Source: Candidatus Thorarchaeota archaeon
GTDB taxonomy: Archaea > Asgardarchaeota > Thorarchaeia > Thorarchaeales > Thorarchaeaceae
DNA length: 32,000 nucleotides
Direction: 5' to 3'
NCBI GenBank assembly: GCA_008080745.1
Contig: SHMX01000001.1
Location: forward strand, 330,001-362,000
The notes under the pieces are model-generated. The model was not told the DNA's origin. It ran no database searches and saw only the letters and a list, made by a program, of their open reading frames with translations. This document shows, one piece after another, positions 13,153 to 24,877 of the stretch. Each line of letters starts with the position of its first letter. Within the stretch, counting starts at the first letter, position 1. Position numbers and translations under genes: made by a program.

Positions 13153-14742
13153 TTAATCTGTATCTTCATCATCTTCATCAGCATTATGCAACTTGACTGG
13201 TTCCATCCGTCCTAGTATCTGTTCGAGTTCTGTAATTGTTCTCTTTGTAACAGAGAGGGGTTCTTCTACTTTATCTTCAAGATGCTCTTCTTCAGAAAGA
13301 GTTACAGGTTCCATTACGCCGAGTATCTGTTCTAGTTCTTTGATAGCACTTCCCGAAACAGTCTCACGTGGATGTTCTTCCGTCGAAATATCTCCCACTT
13401 CTTCACTCTTCAATGCTCTGAGACTCTCTTCGATTTCGTCTTCAGAAACCATTTCGATTTCTGATTCAACTTCAGCATCGGCCTCAAGAGCTTCTGATAT
13501 TGCTTTCTTTGGATCAACGGGCTCATCGACAACTTCTGATTCTATATCCGGGGTTTCTTCAAACGACTCGGATATAATCTCCTCTGGGGGTTTCTCAGAA
13601 ATAATATCTTCCTCATATGATTCTTCAGCAGATTCTATATCTCCGCTCTCAGACACCTCGACATATTCCTCAACTATCTCATAGTCACCCGCTTCGATAT
13701 CGGCTTCATCGATTATCTGACCATCTTCATCTACAAGAACCTCGACTATTTCGTATTCCTCGTCTTCCTCAAGCTCTTCTTCATCATATTCTTCATCGTC
13801 ATCTAAACCATCAAGTTGAGAGATCTCTTCTTCGAGCTCGTCTGCAAAGCGCAAAATTTCCGTTGCTGGCAAATCAGGAAGGGTGACACCAACATATTGG
13901 GCAGCTGCATTCATCAAGATTCGCAACATCTCATCACGGCGACTCTTATCTACAGCAACCATCGGATATGTGGGGACACCAAGTATTTTCTGAATCACTT
14001 CCGGTCGCATTGCGTTAGGTTTGTCCTGTTTATTTGCTATCACAAATAGAGGAACTTTTGGAGCATCTCTTCGAATGAGTTTCATGATATCTTTGCTTAC
14101 TATTACATTTCGCAGAGAAGAGTCACAGACCAGAAAGATGACGTCTGCACCATGGAAATAAAATCTCCAGAGCTTTCTGAAACGTTCCTGCCCTGCAAAA
14201 TCCCAAAGTACAAGGCTGTAGTTTCCAAAACGGATATTTTCAACAGTTTCTAGATTTAATGCAATGGTTGGTACATACTGAGTAGGAGGGGTATCTCCTA
14301 ATAGAAGATGAAGTGTGGTGGTCTTACCCACACCACCCTCTCCGACTAGGGCGATTTTGAGTTTTGTAGTAACCGATGATTCGATAAGACCTTCAAAATC
14401 TTGAATCGTCATTCCTAGACCTTTTGAACTGATGTATTTCTTTAGAATCTTAATTCCTTTCTTCAATTTCTCGCCAAGGCTTTTATCGTCCTCACCAAGA
14501 TCACCCACCATCAGTAAAATTGTATCATTTGTGACCTCGGATGCCATCATCTTATGTTCATGGATATTTAGGGGGATGTTTATGAAGTCACTACCCGATG
14601 CTTGTTTTATCTCAGACCGAGTAGCTAAAAACTCATCAATTTCCGCCTGTGAAACCTCTATGGGCCAATATTGTGCAGTGGCCAGAACTTTACCCGAGAG
14701 ATCGATAAGGAATGTATTGTGAATCACGTCTATATTCACCAT
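13153..14742 (-). CDS. Arf/Rag-like small GTPase with N-terminal longin/roadblock-like domain and long acidic C-terminal region
   Basis: GEGGVGKTT, PTIALN, WDFAGQERFRKLWRFYF, ANKQD; about 125 aa N-terminal alpha/beta domain; Glu/Asp-rich C-terminal half. Confidence 0.88.
   Translation of the reverse strand: MVNIDVIHNTFLIDLSGKVLATAQYWPIEVSQAEIDEFLATRSEIKQASGSDFINIPLNIHEHKMMASEVTNDTILLMVGDLGEDDKSLGEKLKKGIKILKKYISSKGLGMTIQDFEGLIESSVTTKLKIALVGEGGVGKTTTLHLLLGDTPPTQYVPTIALNLETVENIRFGNYSLVLWDFAGQERFRKLWRFYFHGADVIFLVCDSSLRNVIVSKDIMKLIRRDAPKVPLFVIANKQDKPNAMRPEVIQKILGVPTYPMVAVDKSRRDEMLRILMNAAAQYVGVTLPDLPATEILRFADELEEEISQLDGLDDDEEYDEEELEEDEEYEIVEVLVDEDGQIIDEADIEAGDYEIVEEYVEVSESGDIESAEESYEEDIISEKPPEEIISESFEETPDIESEVVDEPVDPKKAISEALEADAEVESEIEMVSEDEIEESLRALKSEEVGDISTEEHPRETVSGSAIKELEQILGVMEPVTLSEEEHLEDKVEEPLSVTKRTITELEQILGRMEPVKLHNADEDDEDTD
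13189..13344 (-). repeat. Duplicated 16-aa motif in the GTPase acidic tail
   Basis: IKELEQILGVMEPVTL (13297-13344) and ITELEQILGRMEPVKL (13189-13236). Confidence 0.9.
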
Positions 14743-16710: not shown

Positions 16711-17109
16711 ATGAGTGAAGCTACCGAGAGAAACACCACCTTCGGTGAAACCAGGCACTTATCGCCAAGATATAAAACGGAAACAAAAAGCCCTCCAATA
16801 GAAGAGAGAAAAGCACTAATCGAAATGATACAAAAATCACCCCGTTCTGCGAATTTTTGGTATCATTTGGGTGTGTATCTAAAGGATCAAGGAAATTTAG
16901 AAGAAGCTGAAGATGCATTCCTCACCACTGTGGAATTAGACGGAAACTTCAGAGAAGCTTGGTTGAATCTTGTATGGATATATGAAATACTAGGAATGAG
17001 AGAGGAAGCGGTCATGGCCATTGAAATGTTAGAGCTATCGACCGAAGAGGAGAATGATCTACTTAATATTCAATTCTTTGGTGACGATACACTTCATATG
17101 TCAAAATAA
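16711..17109 (+). CDS. Small TPR protein
   Basis: SPRSANFWYHLGVYLKDQGNLEEAEDAFLTTVELD and AWLNLVWIYEILGMREEA. Confidence 0.85.
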   Translation: MSEATERNTTFGETRHLSPRYKTETKSPPIEERKALIEMIQKSPRSANFWYHLGVYLKDQGNLEEAEDAFLTTVELDGNFREAWLNLVWIYEILGMREEAVMAIEMLELSTEEENDLLNIQFFGDDTLHMSK

Positions 17110-17244
17110 AAGAACCTAACATTAAAGGAATAATGGGGCCCGATTGGGCCCGAGAATGAATGCGTATCGAGCAATCCTGATTTCTCCAAATGGGACCGGA
17201 TTGGCCCGCAAAAGCGAACCATCCGCGTCCGGAAACCCGTTCCA

Positions 17245-17412
17245 TCGTGCACGGAAAACACGTTATGCGCAAGTATTTGCAAGGGGGACCTGCATTTATT
17301 TGGGACCAAATGCTTAGAACTCGTATCTTTGGGACCGTTTGTGTTGCGAATGCGAGTTCAAGACGGGGCCCGTGCACGAGTACCGGGTACTCGAAGGCAA
17401 TTCTAATCTATA
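17245..17412 (+). ncRNA. Candidate structured RNA, copy 1 (unrecognised family)
   Basis: 10-bp closing stem 17245-17254/17370-17379; hairpins 17269-17280, 17292-17313, 17317-17359; motifs AAGGGGGACC, TTAGAAC and TAATCTATA shared with copy 2. Confidence 0.55.
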
Positions 17413-17589
17413 CTTTTCCGCATAAGAAGCTTTCTAGTGTCTTAGGGGCAAAAGAAGACCCCATAACCCTGCGATTATCCTAAAAATCGGTTCATATGCC
17501 TGCGAATATCACAATTAAAGGGCACCATGATATGAGATATTCGCAATGTTAGATGGCTATTGATGAGAATTAAGAAAATAATAAGGGGG

Positions 17590-17611
17590 GACCGTTCGAA
17601 ATTGAACGGTC
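17590..17611 (-). terminator. Stem-loop downstream of the longin-like gene
   Basis: GACCGTTC/GAACGGTC 8-bp stem just past the stop at 17620, followed on the minus strand by CCCCCTTATTATTTTCTT. Confidence 0.5.
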
Positions 17612-17619
17612 AAACGCAA

Positions 17620-18759
17620 TTATCGTGGGAAGTTATCACGTAAGAGCCGGAGATGATGGTGAATCAGCTCACGTAGTTTGTTATCTTCTGGATTGCTCTC
17701 AAGATCCTGAGGTAGTGAGGCCAAGAAATATTCTGGGAAGAACAACCGTACACGAATATCGTTCAAGAGGAAAATCCATTTGTCAGTTTCACCTGATACT
17801 TCCTCTCTTCTTCGCTCGGATACCACCCTATATTTAATCAAGGTCTGAACGGCTGCTTTCAACTCCTTTGGAGGTATTCCAAGGGTGGCCTCTAATTCAG
17901 CCATATTCTGGGGACGCCTACGGAGTTCGCTTAATGTATCATAGCAATCAGGATCTGCAAGAATTTCTGCAATAGAAACCGTATCTTCCGGGGTCTTCTT
18001 CCACTCTCTGAGAAATTCTAAGACTTCCATCTTGTATTCTGCGGCTAGTTCAGGGTCCAATACTTTTCCTGCGGCTTCCATTGCTAAAAGTGGAGGTGCA
18101 CGAAATACCTCAAGGTCCTTTATCATGAACACGCATGTTCGACCAATCTCATCAACCCATTCCGTCTTGACTAATCCCAACTCTTCAAAGGGGGACAGAA
18201 TAGAATCTACACTAACACTGGGAAGGCCAGTGACCATCTTCAACCATTCTTCCAAATCTTCTTTCGATATTCCACCCTTCCATAATTTCGGAAATACAGC
18301 TCTTGACAGCTCATCTGCAAAAAGACGGGCGAGCCGAGATTCATCGGTCATTCCTGCAAGACGAATGATTCTTCGATAAGTGTTCTCAAGCTCCTCTTGA
18401 ACCTCACTATCTGTCATGGTGGCAACAGAATTGGTAAGGTGCGAAACTATTGATGTGATGGCAGCTTCGTAGGATTTGGGGTCTTCTGATGTATTCAAAA
18501 GTAGGGATATACAGTACTGTTCTTCCTCACGTACTATTCCAGTGTAGTAAGATGCAACTGCATATTCTTCCCCGCCAATTCTGACACTCAGAGACGAAAA
18601 TCCAGCTGTTGCATCACCCATAGCATGTGATGTGAAGATTCTCATAATCTCCGTGTTGAGGTCTTCTCTATAGTAATCTGCAAAATCAGCAGGAACCTTT
18701 GCCTTAAGTACGGCTCCAACTTTCGAATCCCAATCGATAAGTACTAATGCAACAGGCAT
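17620..18759 (-). CDS. Longin/uDENN-like domain protein with C-terminal winged-helix-like regions
   Basis: N-terminus VLIDWDSKVGAVLKAKVP...ASYY...YCISLLL resembles longin/uDENN; C-terminal helical/wH segments (ELEATLGIPPKELKAAVQTLIKYRVV). Confidence 0.65.
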   Translation of the reverse strand: MPVALVLIDWDSKVGAVLKAKVPADFADYYREDLNTEIMRIFTSHAMGDATAGFSSLSVRIGGEEYAVASYYTGIVREEEQYCISLLLNTSEDPKSYEAAITSIVSHLTNSVATMTDSEVQEELENTYRRIIRLAGMTDESRLARLFADELSRAVFPKLWKGGISKEDLEEWLKMVTGLPSVSVDSILSPFEELGLVKTEWVDEIGRTCVFMIKDLEVFRAPPLLAMEAAGKVLDPELAAEYKMEVLEFLREWKKTPEDTVSIAEILADPDCYDTLSELRRRPQNMAELEATLGIPPKELKAAVQTLIKYRVVSERRREEVSGETDKWIFLLNDIRVRLFFPEYFLASLPQDLESNPEDNKLRELIHHHLRLLRDNFPR

Positions 18760-18871
18760 TCTTGTTTTCTCCAGGTCCCTTGGTTGAACTTATGCGAAAG
18801 AACAACCTATTCTATAGCGTTGTTCGCTGAGTCACTAAAAAAGCTTGTCACTATTTTTTCCGCATATTTTC

Positions 18872-19564
18872 TCAGAGGCTTTTTCTAGCATTTTCCTTCA
18901 TAAAACGAATAATTTCAGACTTGACCAATGAAACTACTTCTTTCAAGGGAAAGGTTGCATCGATGACAAAGTAATTCCCCCAGTCACTCTTTACCATCTC
19001 TAAGTAAGCCTTGCGTACTTCTACCAATCTATCATGTTTCTCAAATTGCTGATTTGTTTCACAGCCTCTACCAGTTACTCTACAGAGACCCTCTTCTGCA
19101 GAGATATCCAAGATGAATACGATATCGGGTTCTATAGCGGCTATTCCTTCTCGGTTTTTTTTCAAAATCTCCGACCAGTGTAAACCTGTGCTAGTACTTT
19201 GATATGCGCCAGTAGCAAAAAAGTAACGATCCATCAGGACTATTTTCCCATCCTTTAAAGCTGGAATCAGTCGGTTCCGAATGTTCCAATCACGATCCTT
19301 AATGAATAAATCAAGCTCCTCAGATGGAGTGAGCTCTCCCATGGGAGATCTTCGGCGAATCTCTTTACCCCATTTGCTCTCATCCGTTGGCTCTCTAAGA
19401 ATAGCTACCTGAAAGCCCATTTCAGTTAGATTTTGAGCCACACTTCGGCAGACTGCCGTCTTTCCCGCCCCATCGATACCTTCAAGAACAAATAGATATC
19501 CAGGATAATCTTTTCCAGTCTTTTGAGCCACAAGAGTTCGCCTGCCAATGATTGTTCGATGCAT
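18872..19564 (-). CDS. tmk: Thymidylate kinase
   Basis: LFVLEGIDGAGKT, LREPT, LMDRYFFATGAYQ, PDIVFILDIS, QFEK, VIDA. The start may be a later GTG. Confidence 0.95.
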   Translation of the reverse strand: MHRTIIGRRTLVAQKTGKDYPGYLFVLEGIDGAGKTAVCRSVAQNLTEMGFQVAILREPTDESKWGKEIRRRSPMGELTPSEELDLFIKDRDWNIRNRLIPALKDGKIVLMDRYFFATGAYQSTSTGLHWSEILKKNREGIAAIEPDIVFILDISAEEGLCRVTGRGCETNQQFEKHDRLVEVRKAYLEMVKSDWGNYFVIDATFPLKEVVSLVKSEIIRFMKENARKSL

Positions 19565-19708
19565 AGATTTCCCCGTATTAGTCCTTCGGTCACACGAGTT
19601 GTCAGTATGACTGGTTAAAGTTTCATAACAAAATCACGCCCATCAAACAATATTTAAGCAACCATTGCGATTATAATAAGTGAGAGAGGACTTCAGGGGA
19701 CTGAAGAT

Positions 19709-19871
19709 TATAGATTATTGACATGACATCTGACGTGTTTAATCGTCTGGGCACCCCTCCCATGTAACAAACTGCGATAGCGACTTGCGTCAAACCGCGT
19801 TCGTTCGTTCTAATAGCCCTTTTTACGGGCTAGGTCCCCTTGCAGAGTTCTCTGCCCAGTTGATTCACGAT
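19709..19871 (-). ncRNA. Candidate structured RNA, copy 2 (unrecognised family)
   Basis: Minus strand: CUGGGCA/UGCCCAG and AUCGU/ACGAU closing stems; GCAGAG/CUCUGC and UAGCCC/GGGCUA hairpins; long stem capped by a GCAA tetraloop; motifs AAGGGGACC, UUAGAAC, UAAUCUAUA. TTTTAAAA TATA-like box near 19898-19905. Confidence 0.55.
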
Positions 19872-20024
19872 ATCGGATGCCATTGTTAGATTTCCGATTT
19901 TAAAATTATCAATGAATAAGATGAGACTATATCCAAAAATAGGAATTAACAAAGAAACTAATACCTAAGAAGGAATATATGCTGTCAGGTGCATAATCAA
20001 AGTAAATATCGGGACTTGTTCTGA

Positions 20025-22235
20025 ATGAAAGGGAATTCAAATTCTGATGACGTGTTATCAGAATCAGACCAAAAATTTAGAATTATACTAGAAGAAGCAC
20101 CGATTGGAATTATAACTTGTGATAAGATGGGATGGATTCAGAGCATTAACAAAGCCGCCCTTGAACTATTAGACTCGCCTTCAGAAAAACAAACAAAGAA
20201 AATAAATCTCCTTGAATTTAAGCCATTGAAAGATGTGGGGTTTTCTGAAGATCTTCATAGTTGTTTAACAACCGGAGAAATTGTGCTAAAAGAATCAACC
20301 TATACTTCAAAATGGGGGAAAACAGGTCAATATATGTACAAATTAGTCCCATTAGTGAGAAACGGGAAAGAAATAGAGGGTGCGATATGCATCATCGAAG
20401 ATATCACATCACTTCGCGAGTCCGAAACCAAAGTGGATTTGTATAGGAAGATAATGGAATACTCAAATGATGCTATTGCAATTTTAGATCCATATGGCAG
20501 ATATATTGAGCAAAACTCAACACACGAGTTGCTTTTGGGATTTTCAGATTCAGACTTGGAAGGTATGACTCCTGCGATACATCTGGGAGAGGACGTCTTT
20601 TCGACAGTCTTTCAGAAACTGGTTGAAACTGGACACTTCAGAGGAGATGTGATAAGCGAAAGAAAAGATGGAAAAATAATAGATATCGACCTTGCTGCTT
20701 TCACCATTCATGGAGAAGATAATAATCCACTATATTATGTTGGAGTGAAACGAAACATTACACCGCAAAAAGAAGCAATGCGAGCAGTAGAACAGAGTGA
20801 GGCACGTCTGGCAGAGGCACAACGTATAGCTAAGATAGGAAGTTGGGAATGGGATATTGTACAAAACAAAGAAATATGGTCTGATGAGGTCTATCGTATT
20901 TTCGGCCTCAACCCAGAAGGTTTCGCAGCTAACTATGAGGCGTTTCTAGAGGCGGTTCATCCTGATGATAGAGAAATAGTAAGAGAGTCAGTACAAGCAG
21001 CACTTTATGAACAGGAACCATATAGTCTCGATCACCGCATTATTCGCCCTGACGGATCAGTCAGATTTGTCCGAGAAGAGGGGGCCGTATACTTCGATGA
21101 TAAAAAAAATCCTGTCAGAATGGTTGGCACGATTCAAGATATTACTGAAAAGAAATTGATTGAGATGGACCTTGAAGAGAGCGAGGAGATTTATCGATTT
21201 CACTTTGAAAATGCCACCGATGTAATACTATCACTAGATTCAGAGGGCAAGATTCTCAAAATATCTCCCTCTGTGGAATATCATATTGGATATAAGCCAG
21301 AACAGCTTGTTAACAGATCTTTCCTTGAAATAGACATTATTGCACCAGAATATATTGATCAAGCGCTTAAGTATTATGAAGACATACTAAAAGGAGATGG
21401 CATAGTTAGAGGTGTGTTTGAGTTTGTTACCAAAAGTGGAGAACGTATCTTTGGTGAGATAAATGGAAGATCACTTCAGCATAAAGGAAAAACAGAAGCT
21501 GTTATTGTGATCCGAGATGTTACAAAGACCGTAAGAACTGAAAAACTCCTGAAGACAGCAAGAGATAGTGCACTTCTCTATCTTGATTTGATGGGGCATG
21601 ATCTGGCAAATCAATTACAAGCTATACTCAGCACAACATCACTATTAATGAACAACATTTACGATTTGAGAATGTTTATGCAACTGGAACAAGTTATGGA
21701 ATCGGTCGAGAAATGTGCCAACATAATTTCACGTATTAAATCAACAGAAGATATGATAACTGCCCCCTTAAGACCAAGGTCTCTTGTTAAAGCAGTCAAG
21801 GAATGTATAAGAGATATCCAAACTCGCAGTTCAGATATAAACATCCATTTTTCAAGTCCATTGAAGGATGCCTCAATCTTTGCAGATCAATATTTGGAAA
21901 TAATCATTCATAACATTTTGGAAAATGCCATCGGACACAATCCAAAAGATGAGAAACATGTGTGGATTGAACTAGTGGAAACTGAATACTACTACGATCT
22001 CTCTATCGCCGATAATGGCCCTGGATTATCATTAAGAGAGAAACAAGGATTATTCGACTTGGAACGCCGTTTTGGAGGAGTAGGAGTCCATCAAACCCGC
22101 CAGATAGTTGAGAAATATGGTGGCAGTGTAAAGATAGAAGATAGAATCTCAAGTAAACAAAATCAGGGACTAAAATTCATTCTTAGATTTCCAAAAAAAA
22201 GTAGGTCATCATACATACAAGGTCACCGAAAATAG
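20025..22235 (+). CDS. Cytoplasmic multi-PAS (four PAS/PAC) sensor histidine kinase
   Basis: Four PAS-like units (LEEAPIGI, MEYSNDAI, IGSWEWD...HPDD, FENATDVI); H-box LMGHDLANQL; N-box NILENAIGHN; G1 DNGPG; no TM segments. Confidence 0.92.
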   Translation: MKGNSNSDDVLSESDQKFRIILEEAPIGIITCDKMGWIQSINKAALELLDSPSEKQTKKINLLEFKPLKDVGFSEDLHSCLTTGEIVLKESTYTSKWGKTGQYMYKLVPLVRNGKEIEGAICIIEDITSLRESETKVDLYRKIMEYSNDAIAILDPYGRYIEQNSTHELLLGFSDSDLEGMTPAIHLGEDVFSTVFQKLVETGHFRGDVISERKDGKIIDIDLAAFTIHGEDNNPLYYVGVKRNITPQKEAMRAVEQSEARLAEAQRIAKIGSWEWDIVQNKEIWSDEVYRIFGLNPEGFAANYEAFLEAVHPDDREIVRESVQAALYEQEPYSLDHRIIRPDGSVRFVREEGAVYFDDKKNPVRMVGTIQDITEKKLIEMDLEESEEIYRFHFENATDVILSLDSEGKILKISPSVEYHIGYKPEQLVNRSFLEIDIIAPEYIDQALKYYEDILKGDGIVRGVFEFVTKSGERIFGEINGRSLQHKGKTEAVIVIRDVTKTVRTEKLLKTARDSALLYLDLMGHDLANQLQAILSTTSLLMNNIYDLRMFMQLEQVMESVEKCANIISRIKSTEDMITAPLRPRSLVKAVKECIRDIQTRSSDINIHFSSPLKDASIFADQYLEIIIHNILENAIGHNPKDEKHVWIELVETEYYYDLSIADNGPGLSLREKQGLFDLERRFGGVGVHQTRQIVEKYGGSVKIEDRISSKQNQGLKFILRFPKKSRSSYIQGHRK

Positions 22236-22376
22236 GGAGAAGTTAATCAACGGTAATTTAATGAATTAGATTAAGTAGTAAGTGACAATAATCAGTACGA
22301 ATGAAAGAGTTTCATTTAGTCAAGTTTAAGAGGCGATTGTTGTAGGATAGGTTATCCTATCCTAGAAGGTTTAACC

Positions 22377-22862
22377 GTGAAGATTTTGTCAGCTCTACTA
22401 ATTGTTATAATGTTTCTAAACCCATTATCAGCTGCGGATAATGAATCAGTGCTCGAATATATTCCAGCAGCCGAGGGTGTATCTTTGAGAATTGATTTCG
22501 ATAACGGGACAGTTAGGACATTCAATGACTTGTCAGCTGATACCGTACTAAATCTGACAGAGTCTGTCATATCAGTAGAATATGAATGGCAAGGAGATCT
22601 GGTATTCGTTACTGCAATTGGGGGAGTTGAAGAGAGTCCTCAGGAGGGATTGTGGTGGCAGTACTGGGTGAATGAAGAGCTAGGACCAGTAGCTGCAAAC
22701 AAATACATTCTTGATAATCAAGATGTAGTTGAATGGAAACTCTCACCGTATAACGCTCCAACCACAACTACAGAAGACCCATCACTCTATCTCAGTCTTT
22801 TACTTCTCGGAACAATTGGTATAGGATTTCTAATATTCATTTCAAAAAGGGGAAAATCATGA
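22377..22862 (+). CDS. DUF4430 (transcobalamin C-terminal-like) surface protein
   Basis: Signal peptide; GDLVFVTAIGG, WWQYWVN...AANKYILDNQDVVEW; C-terminal TM anchor. Confidence 0.8.
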   Translation: MKILSALLIVIMFLNPLSAADNESVLEYIPAAEGVSLRIDFDNGTVRTFNDLSADTVLNLTESVISVEYEWQGDLVFVTAIGGVEESPQEGLWWQYWVNEELGPVAANKYILDNQDVVEWKLSPYNAPTTTTEDPSLYLSLLLLGTIGIGFLIFISKRGKS

Positions 22863-23593
22863 ATATCCGTTTGATTTCGATAATTATCATAACAAGCATT
22901 ATTTTTTCAGGGACCGTATATGGCGCTGAAGAATATGGAATACCTCATCCAGACTTGATTAACAATCCAGAATTTGTTTGGGAGATATTAGACAGCCCGA
23001 ATACACCCTTCGACCTATTTTGGACTGGCACAACAGCATGGTACGCAGAAACAAGCAGTACAATGACGTTTAAAGTAAATCAGATTGCACAGGATGTACA
23101 GGGTCGATTCACTCTGGGAAATATCTCAGTAGTGGCAAATGATACTGATATTGCGAAAGAATTTGTGCTTGGTGTATGGGGACTGACATCATTTCTCCCA
23201 GGATTGATTATTGAGGTGGATGAAACCAGTCTATCAGAGCTAAACACAACAGCTTACGCATCTGCTGAAAGGGTTGCTGGAAATTATCTTAATGGTACTA
23301 TGACATCTAGTTATGAAACGCTTGTGATTAACGGGCAGACATATGAATGTATCACTTTCTCCTATATTCAAGACGAAACTAGTTTTGGTACCCCACAAGA
23401 AACCAAACTCTCCTATGATCTCGATACTGGTGTGATTGTCTATGCTAAGACCAGTTATTCATTTGGTATTCCATTTGTCTTAGAGTTTGAAATAAGGTCG
23501 ATAACTACTGCCAATGTGATGCTAATTCTAGGCATAAGCACAGGAGCAGTGATTTTACTGATAGGAATCGTGACAATATTCAGAAGGAAATAG
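22859..23593 (+). CDS. Secreted, C-terminally anchored hypothetical protein
   Basis: Signal peptide, beta-rich body (KLSYDLDTGVIV), C-terminal TM plus RRK; start overlaps the upstream stop. Confidence 0.8.
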   Translation: MNIRLISIIIITSIIFSGTVYGAEEYGIPHPDLINNPEFVWEILDSPNTPFDLFWTGTTAWYAETSSTMTFKVNQIAQDVQGRFTLGNISVVANDTDIAKEFVLGVWGLTSFLPGLIIEVDETSLSELNTTAYASAERVAGNYLNGTMTSSYETLVINGQTYECITFSYIQDETSFGTPQETKLSYDLDTGVIVYAKTSYSFGIPFVLEFEIRSITTANVMLILGISTGAVILLIGIVTIFRRK

Positions 23594-23602
23594 GTGTTTT
23601 GA

Positions 23603-24214
23603 ATGGAGACCCAGGAAACAAATCAAAGAATATCTCGAAGTAGATGGGTCTCCCTAACCTCAATCATGACTGCATTGGCACTAGTAGGAAATTATGTGTT
23701 AGTGGGAATACCAAATGTTGAGTTTGGGACCACTATCTTATTCGTCACGGGATATCTCTTCGGCTTCCATATGGCTGCCTGGAGTACCCTCATAATGTCG
23801 ATAATATATGGAAGTATAAACCCGTGGGGTGCCTTCATTCCTCCAATATGGATCACTCAGGTTGTGGGCTGGCTTTTTATTTCTGCATCTGGCTCAATAC
23901 TTGGAGAAAAAGAAAGATTCACGACCAAAAATAAAGAACGAATGATTGAGTTAGGACTAACTGGAGCATTTCTTACTTTATTCTTTGATCTCATTACCAA
24001 TGCAGGGTATGCATACGCATTCTCTATCCCATACTACATAACAATCCTATCAGGAATAGTTTTCATGGTTGTGCATGTTGTATCCAATTCGATCATATTT
24101 GCGTCAGCAGTGCCAATATTAGAAGATACCATACGACAACACATGACCGATTTAATCTGGTTTGATTCAAAAGACCTACCGGAACATAGTAGCGAAGAGT
24201 CAAAAGCAGGGTAG
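23603..24214 (+). CDS. ECF transporter S component (possibly cobalamin/CbrT-like)
   Basis: About six TM helices; IMTALAL, IPNVEFGTTILFVTGYLFG, HVVSN. Substrate inferred only from the DUF4430 neighbour. Confidence 0.8.
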   Translation: METQETNQRISRSRWVSLTSIMTALALVGNYVLVGIPNVEFGTTILFVTGYLFGFHMAAWSTLIMSIIYGSINPWGAFIPPIWITQVVGWLFISASGSILGEKERFTTKNKERMIELGLTGAFLTLFFDLITNAGYAYAFSIPYYITILSGIVFMVVHVVSNSIIFASAVPILEDTIRQHMTDLIWFDSKDLPEHSSEESKAG

Positions 24215-24241: not shown

Positions 24242-24877
24242 TTGTGGATTCATGAAGTTACTGAGGTTGCAGAACCCGCTGATGGAAGAGTAGCGCCATC
24301 CTTTAGGCCATATCATGTTGCAGTTGCATTGATTATGATTGGACGACAGCAGCCAATTGGAAGATATGAACTATGCAGTAACCTGTCTATTGGAGAGGGT
24401 AGTGCTCGTACCCTTCTCAAAAGACTCTCAGAGAATGATTTCATCACTCCAGAGGGAAAACAGGGACAAAAATTAACCAGAAAAGGACAAAATCTCTTTG
24501 AAGATATTGTTGAGGATGTTCCTTTTGGATTGTTCCTAGAAATCCCCAATCTAGTTGTTTATGAAAAGGCCTATGCTAACATCGTTAAAGGAAAGGCAGA
24601 TAGGGTCAAGGATGGTATTAGACAGAGAGACGAGGCCATCATTCAGGGAGGATATGGGAAAGCTGGAGCAACGACCCTGATTTTCACTGATGGAATGCTC
24701 GAAATGCCACCGGACCATTTCAAGGTGGTACTTGAATATGAAGCAGAAGCACTACTTATTCGAGAGAGTCTTAGACCAGAAAATGGAGATGTAATAGTTG
24801 TCGGGTCGAGTGATGAAGCAAATCTCGCCAGAGAAATCTCTATGGCGGCTGTAATGACGCTCTTCAGAGAGGATTAG
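24242..24877 (+). CDS. Archaeal HTH protein of the DUF4443/DUF2111 type
   Basis: PSFRPYHV, PIGRYEL...LSIGEGSARTLLKRL, GQKLTRKG, GIRQRDEAI...GAGATTL. Confidence 0.78.
   Translation: MWIHEVTEVAEPADGRVAPSFRPYHVAVALIMIGRQQPIGRYELCSNLSIGEGSARTLLKRLSENDFITPEGKQGQKLTRKGQNLFEDIVEDVPFGLFLEIPNLVVYEKAYANIVKGKADRVKDGIRQRDEAIIQGGYGKAGATTLIFTDGMLEMPPDHFKVVLEYEAEALLIRESLRPENGDVIVVGSSDEANLAREISMAAVMTLFRED

Follow-up and report, generated by a model that had tools for sequence, protein, structure and literature searches.

Two inverted stretches of conserved sequence lie about 2.5 kb apart in the genome of a Candidatus Thorarchaeota archaeon, and they raise the question whether they encode a structured RNA and, if so, from which strand and with what kind of role. 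The window analyzed here comprises 32,000 nucleotides (assembly GCA_008080745.1, contig SHMX01000001.1, positions 330,001 to 362,000), and all coordinates and strands refer to it. An earlier note on this DNA had described the two stretches, hereafter copy 1 and copy 2, as an unrecognized structured RNA motif. The element proved to be homologous and syntenic among Thorarchaeota, its stems covary, its base pairing is biased toward one strand, and it is absent from Rfam 15. We are highly confident that the structured RNA family is real; it is new, specific to Thorarchaeota and fits no described class. The fuller reading, a structured noncoding RNA family whose members stand alone and act in trans, is the one that we prefer, with reserve.

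Homology and synteny of the two copies

The elements attributed to the motif by the earlier note (closing stems, small hairpins, UUAGAAC, G-tracts and others) were all found in place in two related, inverted copies. The pattern AAGGGG(N)ACCT, which reads AAGGGGGACCU in copy 1 and AAGGGGACCU in copy 2, has two matches against 0.10 expected, and its combination with a following TTAGAAC occurs at these two sites alone in the 3.16-Mb genome. Likewise, the 12–13-mer GGTCCCC(C)TTGCA has exactly two genomic occurrences, one per copy and in inverted orientation. On the strands originally proposed, both copies fold better than shuffled controls (z = −2.84 and −2.85, respectively). A chance origin of the two elements is rejected. 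Most of the listed parts hold as elements of the motif; UAAUCUAUA does not, being without conservation even in the sister species. AAGGGGGACCU is present in copy 1 as described, and the element of copy 1 conserved across the family is instead GGGACC (17302–17307), which had been placed in a hairpin loop.

Searches with nhmmer in the relatives, named in their record titles as Candidatus Thorarchaeota metagenome-assembled genomes, covered 54 loci. The anchor of these loci is an open reading frame of 379 codons, a single-copy core gene found in all 61 genomes of the family with 80–86% identity. An orthologue of copy 1 lies directly downstream of this gene in 49 of the 54 loci and an orthologue of copy 2 upstream of it in about 22, from six genera; the sister species carries both in an identical arrangement. 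These orthologues keep their relative position and orientation throughout. Each copy is thus an orthologous element in conserved synteny, and the two copies are paralogues that separated long ago. Across 16 genera the elements are single-copy and syntenic.

A covariance model of copy 1 (R2) extended this picture. Of 81 Thorarchaeota loci it matched 65, each time on the strand that encodes the 379-aa protein and 90–900 nt beyond its gene, which bore out the expectation of many further homologues. At the level of genomes, R2 matched 23 of 26 from the family, with one copy per genome, and none of 125 that represent 26 other families of the phylum. The remaining family genomes gave weak matches at the correct place, which suggests divergence rather than loss. 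Copy 2 was undetected by R2 even at E ≤ 1. Next to the 65%-identical orthologue of the 379-aa gene in the sister family (f2), no convincing candidate appeared, and the loci of the gene's 26%-identical paralogues yielded no RNA. A pattern search allowing one mismatch performed no better in the relatives than a reversed-pattern control and was dropped.

Covariation of the stems

Two models were used to align the orthologues of copy 1: R1, seeded with five sequences from one genus (alignment A7), which aligned 43 orthologues (A8), and R2, which aligned the 65 matched loci (A10). In A8, 89.5% of the cells in paired columns were paired, compared with 70.7% in shuffles and 28–42% in controls with slid pairing. 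Thirty-five pairs had changed on both sides; across the alignments this number ranged from 31 to 35. In A10, 87.0% of the cells were paired, compared with 68.4% in shuffles, and 460 cells were doubly changed. In neither alignment did any of 500 shuffles attain the observed values. Compensatory changes thus exceed both shuffled and slid controls in these model-fitted alignments. As many as six pair types are seen at single positions of the helices P1 and P3 across orthologues, and a compensatory change in P1 already separates this genome (GUGCAC/GUGCAC) from the sister species (GUGUAC/GUACAC). RNAalifold on plain MAFFT alignments of all orthologues recovered P2 alone, the variable P1 being misaligned by MAFFT. 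As the earlier note had proposed, linkers are conserved and stems covary, here in a family far larger than the original pair.

Strand and promoter of copy 1

The strand was first proposed from the window alone, as plus for copy 1. Family-wide statistics reverse this call. Summed over 45 orthologues, the P1 duplex reaches −1085 kcal/mol on the complement, i.e. the minus strand, against −858 on the plus strand, with 114 versus 25 G·U pairs. The P1 mismatches on the plus strand are systematically A·C or C·A in an alignment of 47 sequences, and these are G·U on the complement. The 3′ hairpin P5 behaves similarly (−993 versus −818 kcal/mol), and P2 gains G·U pairs on the complement. Two observations point the other way: the minimum free energy of the whole region, which does not separate the two strands, is slightly lower on the plus strand (mean −54.8 versus −52.2 kcal/mol), and in this genome the extension of P2 contains a U·G pair on the plus strand that becomes a C·A mismatch on the complement.

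A promoter-like block agrees with the minus strand. Of 45 orthologues, 38 have an octamer YUCWUAUR 45–84 nt upstream of the conserved CCCCGUC anchor, where 0.011 would be expected per search window. In copy 1 the corresponding block, at 17421–17437 on the minus strand, reads CTAGAAAGCTTCTTATG, is similar to a B recognition element and TATA box (BRE/TATA-like) as well as to the tRNA-Arg (GGAAAGCTTTATGAC) and RNase P RNA (AGAAATCCTTTATAC) promoters of the same genome; its function as the promoter of the copy 1 RNA gene is predicted. Based on the G·U asymmetry in P1 and P5, the BRE/TATA-like block and the gene order described below, copy 1 is very probably transcribed from the minus strand of the window, the reverse complement of the original proposal. 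A strand call made from a single sequence can thus be overturned by family-wide G·U statistics.

The same data bear on the idea that the elements function as DNA, namely as inverted protein-binding or recombination sites around the module of tmk and the 379-aa gene, for example as origin-recognition-box-like or GGGACC-rich operator repeats. Inverted copies do flank two genes here, and the GGGACC-type cluster is unique to the locus. Nonetheless, stems that vary yet still pair and a strand-specific excess of G·U are the expectation for RNA, not for duplex DNA, and most genera carry copy 1 without copy 2 nearby. We regard a function as DNA sites as scarcely probable.

Architecture of the copy 1 RNA

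The unit defined by the orthologues is larger than the 17245–17412 first assigned to it and extends over about 17190–17437, promoter block included. The RNA itself has a length of about 215 nt and runs from about 17400 to 17190 on the minus strand, as do all parts given below. Its core (17230–17385), comprising inner and outer P1, the junction, P2, the variable P3 and the conserved single strands, is scored by R2 with 72 bits (E = 5e-16).

From its 5′ end the RNA folds into an optional 5′ hairpin and the long helix P1, which contains internal loops. The 5′ strand of P1 (GAGUACCCGGUACUCGUGCACGGG, 17369–17392) forms a duplex of −30.7 kcal/mol with its 3′ strand (17231–17255), a pairing indicated by both energy and covariation. 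It is followed by the junction strand UCCCCCGUCA with the single-stranded CCCCGUC (17362–17368), whose columns are invariant or nearly so in the 47-sequence alignment, and by the hairpin P2 (17317–17359; GGAACUCG / CGAGUUUC, with GAACUCG pairing to CGAGUUC). P2 is helix 3 of the model, where it is 97% paired, with its G·U pairs on the minus strand; its loop contains ACGGUCCC, seen on the plus strand as GGGACC at 17331–17336. The next junction strand, GCAUUGGUCCCC, between P2 and P3, holds the second GGUCCC conserved across the family (17302–17307). The variable hairpin P3, ACUUGCGCAUAAC and a U-rich stretch then lead to the 3′ strand of P1, which is preceded by the conserved single strand CUUGCGCAU (17265–17273). 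A linker connects P1 to P5 (17193–17232; ACGGAUGCGG ... CCGCUCC in the family), where ACGGAUGCGG is the 5′ strand conserved in orthologues. In this genome P5 reads CCGGACGCGG..GGUUCGC UUUU GCGGGCC..CCGGUCC, and a hairpin of at least 8 bp is present in 39 of 42 orthologues. A run of at least four U within 35 nt after P5 occurs in 14 of 40 orthologues compared with a background of 9.5%; it is enriched, yet far from universal. CGCAA and UUGCG form a candidate pseudoknot, complementary in many orthologues and missing in several.

Two further GGUCCC words (17285–17290 and 17192–17197) are found in this genome, and the copy 1 locus is its sole cluster of at least four GGTCCC on the same strand within 300 nt. 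The orthologues typically have two, which weakens the idea of a multi-site sponge built on four.

Two local features adjoin the RNA. At 17133–17210, the 3′ half of P5 is locally duplicated in this genome and in the sister species; the RNA strand there reads CGGGCCCAAUCGGGCCCC beside GCGGGCCAAUCCGGUCCC, with extra GGNCC motifs downstream of the RNA. On the other side, the 379-aa gene ends in a hairpin (17585–17616, minus strand; GACCGUUC..GAACGGUC) followed by CCCCCCUUAUUAUUUU, a further word of the ACGGUCCC type on the RNA strand, directly upstream of the copy 1 promoter block.

The second copy

Copy 2 is an older, more diverged paralogue kept in six genera. Its RNA, placed on the plus strand by homology to copy 1, spans 19727–19901. 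The P1 5′ strand (19727–19753) is followed by CCCCUCCCAUGU (19754–19765), GGUCCCCUUGCAG (19833–19845), the P1 3′ strand (19852–19879) and a 3′ hairpin with UUUU (19871–19901), all on the plus strand. Ten pairs of P1 have changed on both sides among 16 orthologues, and a conserved pairing of CUGCGA with UUGCAG contains an invariant G·U on the plus strand alone. Folding energy leaves the strand undecided, with P1 at −424 kcal/mol on the plus strand versus −402 on the minus strand, and the middle part at −297 versus −301. Based on the homology to copy 1, the P1 bias and the conserved co-directional genes downstream, the RNA of copy 2 is probably on the plus strand, with less certainty than holds for the strand of copy 1.

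The orientation originally proposed, with copy 1 on the plus strand, copy 2 on the minus strand and copy 2 as a 5′ element of tmk, has some features in its favor. Both copies reach z values near −2.85 in that orientation, the minimum free energy of the copy 1 region is slightly lower there, and in the genera g1 and g3 copy 2 forms a long hairpin with a GCAA tetraloop and two G·U pairs, which folds better on the minus strand (−25.6 versus −19.2 kcal/mol). Against these stand the clear preference of P1 and P5 of copy 1 for the other strand, its promoter-like block, which is correct on the minus strand alone, and, in copy 2, the slight bias of P1 and the invariant G·U of CUGCGA/UUGCAG. The TTTTAAAA box, indeed present, is not conserved in orthologues; as a TATA box it finds no support, and on the plus strand it is the U-run after the 3′ hairpin of copy 2. 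The gene downstream of copy 2 in the note's orientation is tmk (Pfam Thymidylate_kin), as reported; it is encoded opposite to the likely RNA, and a related genome (G009) has no tmk at this position. We therefore regard the original orientation as distinctly improbable for the locus as a whole, and copy 2 as a tmk leader is not upheld, even if the strand of copy 2 is left open.

Known RNA families, catalytic RNAs and mobile elements

No Rfam 15 model matched the window at its gathering score. At E ≤ 10 just two chance matches were found in 17000–20100, both away from the elements, and at E ≤ 5 nothing was found at the RNA in ten orthologous loci. The archaeal RNase P RNA (RF00373) and signal recognition particle (SRP) RNA (RF01857) of this genome lie at other loci, on contig 12 (163 bits) and contig 2 (94 bits), respectively, and neither model matches here. 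For the Cobalamin riboswitch (RF00174), the DUF4430 gene context described below is present, and its model had no match genome-wide at E ≤ 10. A guide RNA of the C/D-box or H/ACA type was rejected as well: on inspection, the consensus contains neither a C box nor a pocket followed by ACA, and the snoRNA models of Rfam were unmatched at the element.

A compact junction with invariant unpaired nucleotides might also be that of a self-cleaving or otherwise catalytic RNA. One short contig from a sequencing run, discussed below, ends exactly at the limits of P1, in keeping with this idea. Rfam ribozyme families, however, were unmatched even at E ≤ 10, a cleavage-site signature was not recognized, and the single-copy, family-restricted distribution is unlike that of most self-cleaving ribozymes. 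A catalytic RNA appears very improbable.

A mobile origin had also been considered, and in G009 the homologue of copy 2 abuts a 92-codon open frame that is 60–64% identical to the C-terminus of full-length DDE_Tnp_1 transposases of that genome. The fragment is located at L033:4675-4899 (plus strand) and the full-length, IS4/IS5-like copies at L036:577-1497 and L037:1498-2220. Since the tblastn alignment continues into the motif, the elements could be read as decayed relics of an insertion sequence (IS), i.e. the 3′ part of a DDE transposase gene, or as a miniature inverted-repeat transposable element. Profiles of copy 1 and copy 2, however, matched nothing in the full-length transposase genes with all filters off, and the transposase matched neither window positions 17001–20100 at E ≤ 10 nor any part of this genome. 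In G009 the fragment runs opposite to the likely RNA; it has replaced part of copy 2 there, which it truncates at profile position 139 of 228, as expected of an insertion beside or into copy 2, not of the source of the motif; the seeming colinearity with the transposase coding sequence is a post hoc coincidence. Searches with nhmmer and tblastn were negative in this genome, and single copies in conserved synteny across 16 genera are not what a mobile element would leave. An IS relic or miniature element is barely credible.

Gene context and mode of action

Copy 1 is located, as first reported, between convergent genes, one for a tetratricopeptide repeat (TPR) protein and the 379-aa reading frame, which affiliates with no Pfam family. 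The latter is followed by tmk and, on the other strand, by a PAS histidine kinase gene. In the ancestral order among Thorarchaeota, the gene for the 379-aa protein (longin/DENN-like with a winged helix), the RNA and the gene for a 529-aa Arf/Roc-type GTPase follow each other in the same direction. Genes at 13153–14742 and 17620–18759, both on the minus strand, represent the GTPase and the 379-aa protein of this order in the window. Here, genes for a TPR protein, a 215-aa protein and a GNAT protein have been inserted between the RNA and the GTPase. An orthologue of the GTPase is the co-directional gene after copy 1 in at least 24 loci. In several genera (e.g. L076, L081, L075, L088, L109), the sequence AUACACA(C/G)(A/G) is conserved about 40–60 nt past P5 and before the GTPase gene, and it may belong to the GTPase promoter or to a 3′ part of the RNA that extends further.

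In 11 of 18 loci, copy 2 is followed by a gene for a secreted DUF4430 protein; this domain forms the C-terminal part of transcobalamins (PMC4350170). In the window this gene, the single DUF4430 gene of the genome, starts a likely uptake operon (22377–24214, plus strand), which continues with genes for a 244-aa anchored protein, unassigned in Pfam, and a 203-aa multi-pass membrane protein similar to the S component of energy-coupling factor (ECF) transporters. A PAS/HATPase sensor kinase gene (20025–22235, plus strand) separates copy 2 from the DUF4430 gene in this genome only; the two adjoin in the sister species and in other genera. About 12 nt upstream of the GTG start of the DUF4430 gene lies a perfect palindrome, TAGGATAGG-TTAT-CCTATCCTA (22344–22365, plus strand), which is conserved across genera (L071, L070, L078, L086, L082, L032, L089, L100, L097, L090 and L114). 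A transcription factor, perhaps the DUF4443/PH0730-like protein encoded in the same cluster (24242–24877), probably uses the palindrome as its operator, which could also form an RNA hairpin next to the ribosome-binding site. A conserved TATA-like stretch is found immediately upstream of the DUF4430 gene as well.

This context lends itself to a cis-acting leader in the form of a riboswitch or of an attenuator that depends on a protein. A sensor domain would be coupled to the terminator-like P5 and U-run, with the GTPase gene as the target of copy 1 and the DUF4430 and ECF-S-like operon as that of copy 2. Vitamin-uptake genes are classic riboswitch targets. The recurrence of the GTPase gene after copy 1 and of the transcobalamin-like gene, followed by the ECF S-like protein, after copy 2 agrees with a leader, as does the combination of invariant junction nucleotides with variable stems, which is typical of aptamers. 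In addition, the conserved CGCAU that precedes the 3′ strand of P1 and the AUGCG of the invariant P5 5′ strand are complementary, so that, judged by sequence, an anti-terminator pairing is possible. On the other hand, copy 1 is structurally maintained where the next gene is convergent (genera g1, g5 and g7), the gaps to the start codons amount to 80–300 nt, and a palindrome and a TATA-like stretch of its own directly precede the DUF4430 gene. The DUF4430 gene was also kept in G009, where the IS fragment disrupts copy 2. Finally, the GTPase and DUF4430 genes have no obvious metabolite in common, and the Cobalamin model remained unmatched. A leader is thus rather unlikely, though the best founded of the alternatives to an independent gene; taken together, the gene context keeps a cis-regulatory role alive and favors an independent RNA gene.

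As a stand-alone gene, copy 1 would be transcribed from its own BRE/TATA-like promoter on the minus strand, directly after the 379-aa gene. Its long terminal helix P1 would close a junction holding P2 with its conserved loop, the variable P3 and the invariant C-rich strands (CCCCGUC and two GGUCCC), and the hairpin P5 would follow P1, often with a U-run behind it. The product may be a stable RNA acting in trans, with the C-rich loops presented to a protein or to a G-rich RNA partner. Its logic would be that of a ribonucleoprotein scaffold or a decoy rather than that of a leader for the neighboring gene. The independence from the downstream gene is suggested by the RNA remaining intact, with compensatory changes in P1, where that gene is convergent. 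The promoter-like block is conserved, a U-run follows P5 in 14 of 40 orthologues, and the one hint of a transcript is a short contig from a run of uncertain type. The contig, 159 nt long, covers 17236 to about 17379, i.e. the P1-closed core, and abuts an Illumina adapter at 17236. It is 95–99% alike and hence derives from a relative, and its run is labelled metatranscriptomic but flagged as probably DNA; the contig gives a weak hint of a discrete short molecule and leaves the strand unsettled. Binding of a protein or an RNA in trans as the actual mechanism is proposed tentatively, as a possibility well short of probable.

Several points weigh against an independent, trans-acting RNA. A conserved co-directional gene follows each copy in many genera, a pattern that a cis-acting leader fits equally well. 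The U-run after P5 occurs in the minority of orthologues given above and does not define the 3′ end. No sequencing run recorded as RNA matched the window sequence. Moreover, the alignments used for counting pairs were fitted to the models, which somewhat inflates the pairing.

Comparison with known systems

To our knowledge, the structured noncoding RNAs of Asgard archaea known so far include very few apart from the universal ones. An RNA of about 215 nt, well supported by covariation and found in essentially every Thorarchaeota genome examined, sits here in a conserved neighborhood of genes for small-GTPase regulators, proteins at the heart of the discussion on eukaryogenesis. The RNA may be a partner or regulator of the eukaryote-like GTPase module of Asgard archaea around it, with the 379-aa protein encoded upstream and the Arf/Roc-type GTPase downstream, or represent a new class of riboswitch or attenuator whose paralogues control the GTPase gene and the transcobalamin-like operon; we consider this quite unlikely at present, and either form of it would add RNA control as a layer peculiar to a lineage near the origin of eukaryotes. 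The family offers a concrete target for metatranscriptomics, structure probing and pull-downs.

With the archaeal RNase P and SRP RNAs the Thorarchaeota RNA shares the size class of 200–300 nt, paired termini and an apparent promoter of its own, whereas both of those RNAs are encoded elsewhere in the genome and their models do not match here. Riboswitch leaders such as Cobalamin (RF00174) likewise combine a multi-helix junction and invariant unpaired bases with a hairpin and a U-run, and copy 2 precedes a transcobalamin/ECF-like operon. In contrast to such leaders, the RNA has no match to that model in the genome, copy 1 is kept without a co-directional gene, and the gene downstream of copy 2 appears to have its own promoter and operator. 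CsrB/RsmZ, 6S RNA and Y RNA resemble it in termini paired in a long helix, in repeated motifs (here GGUCCC) in loops and junctions and in an apparently stand-alone gene. The Thorarchaeota RNA shows no sequence or model similarity to them and mostly has two copies of the motif, so that the likeness would be one of logic, by analogy. Closest in kind are the orphan noncoding RNA motifs of the Weinberg/Breaker type (e.g. PMC5737381), with their conserved junction nucleotides, covarying stems, restriction to a lineage and intergenic synteny. From these the Thorarchaeota RNA differs in being archaeal and outside Rfam 15, in its own promoter-like block and in the presence of two diverged paralogues at one locus.

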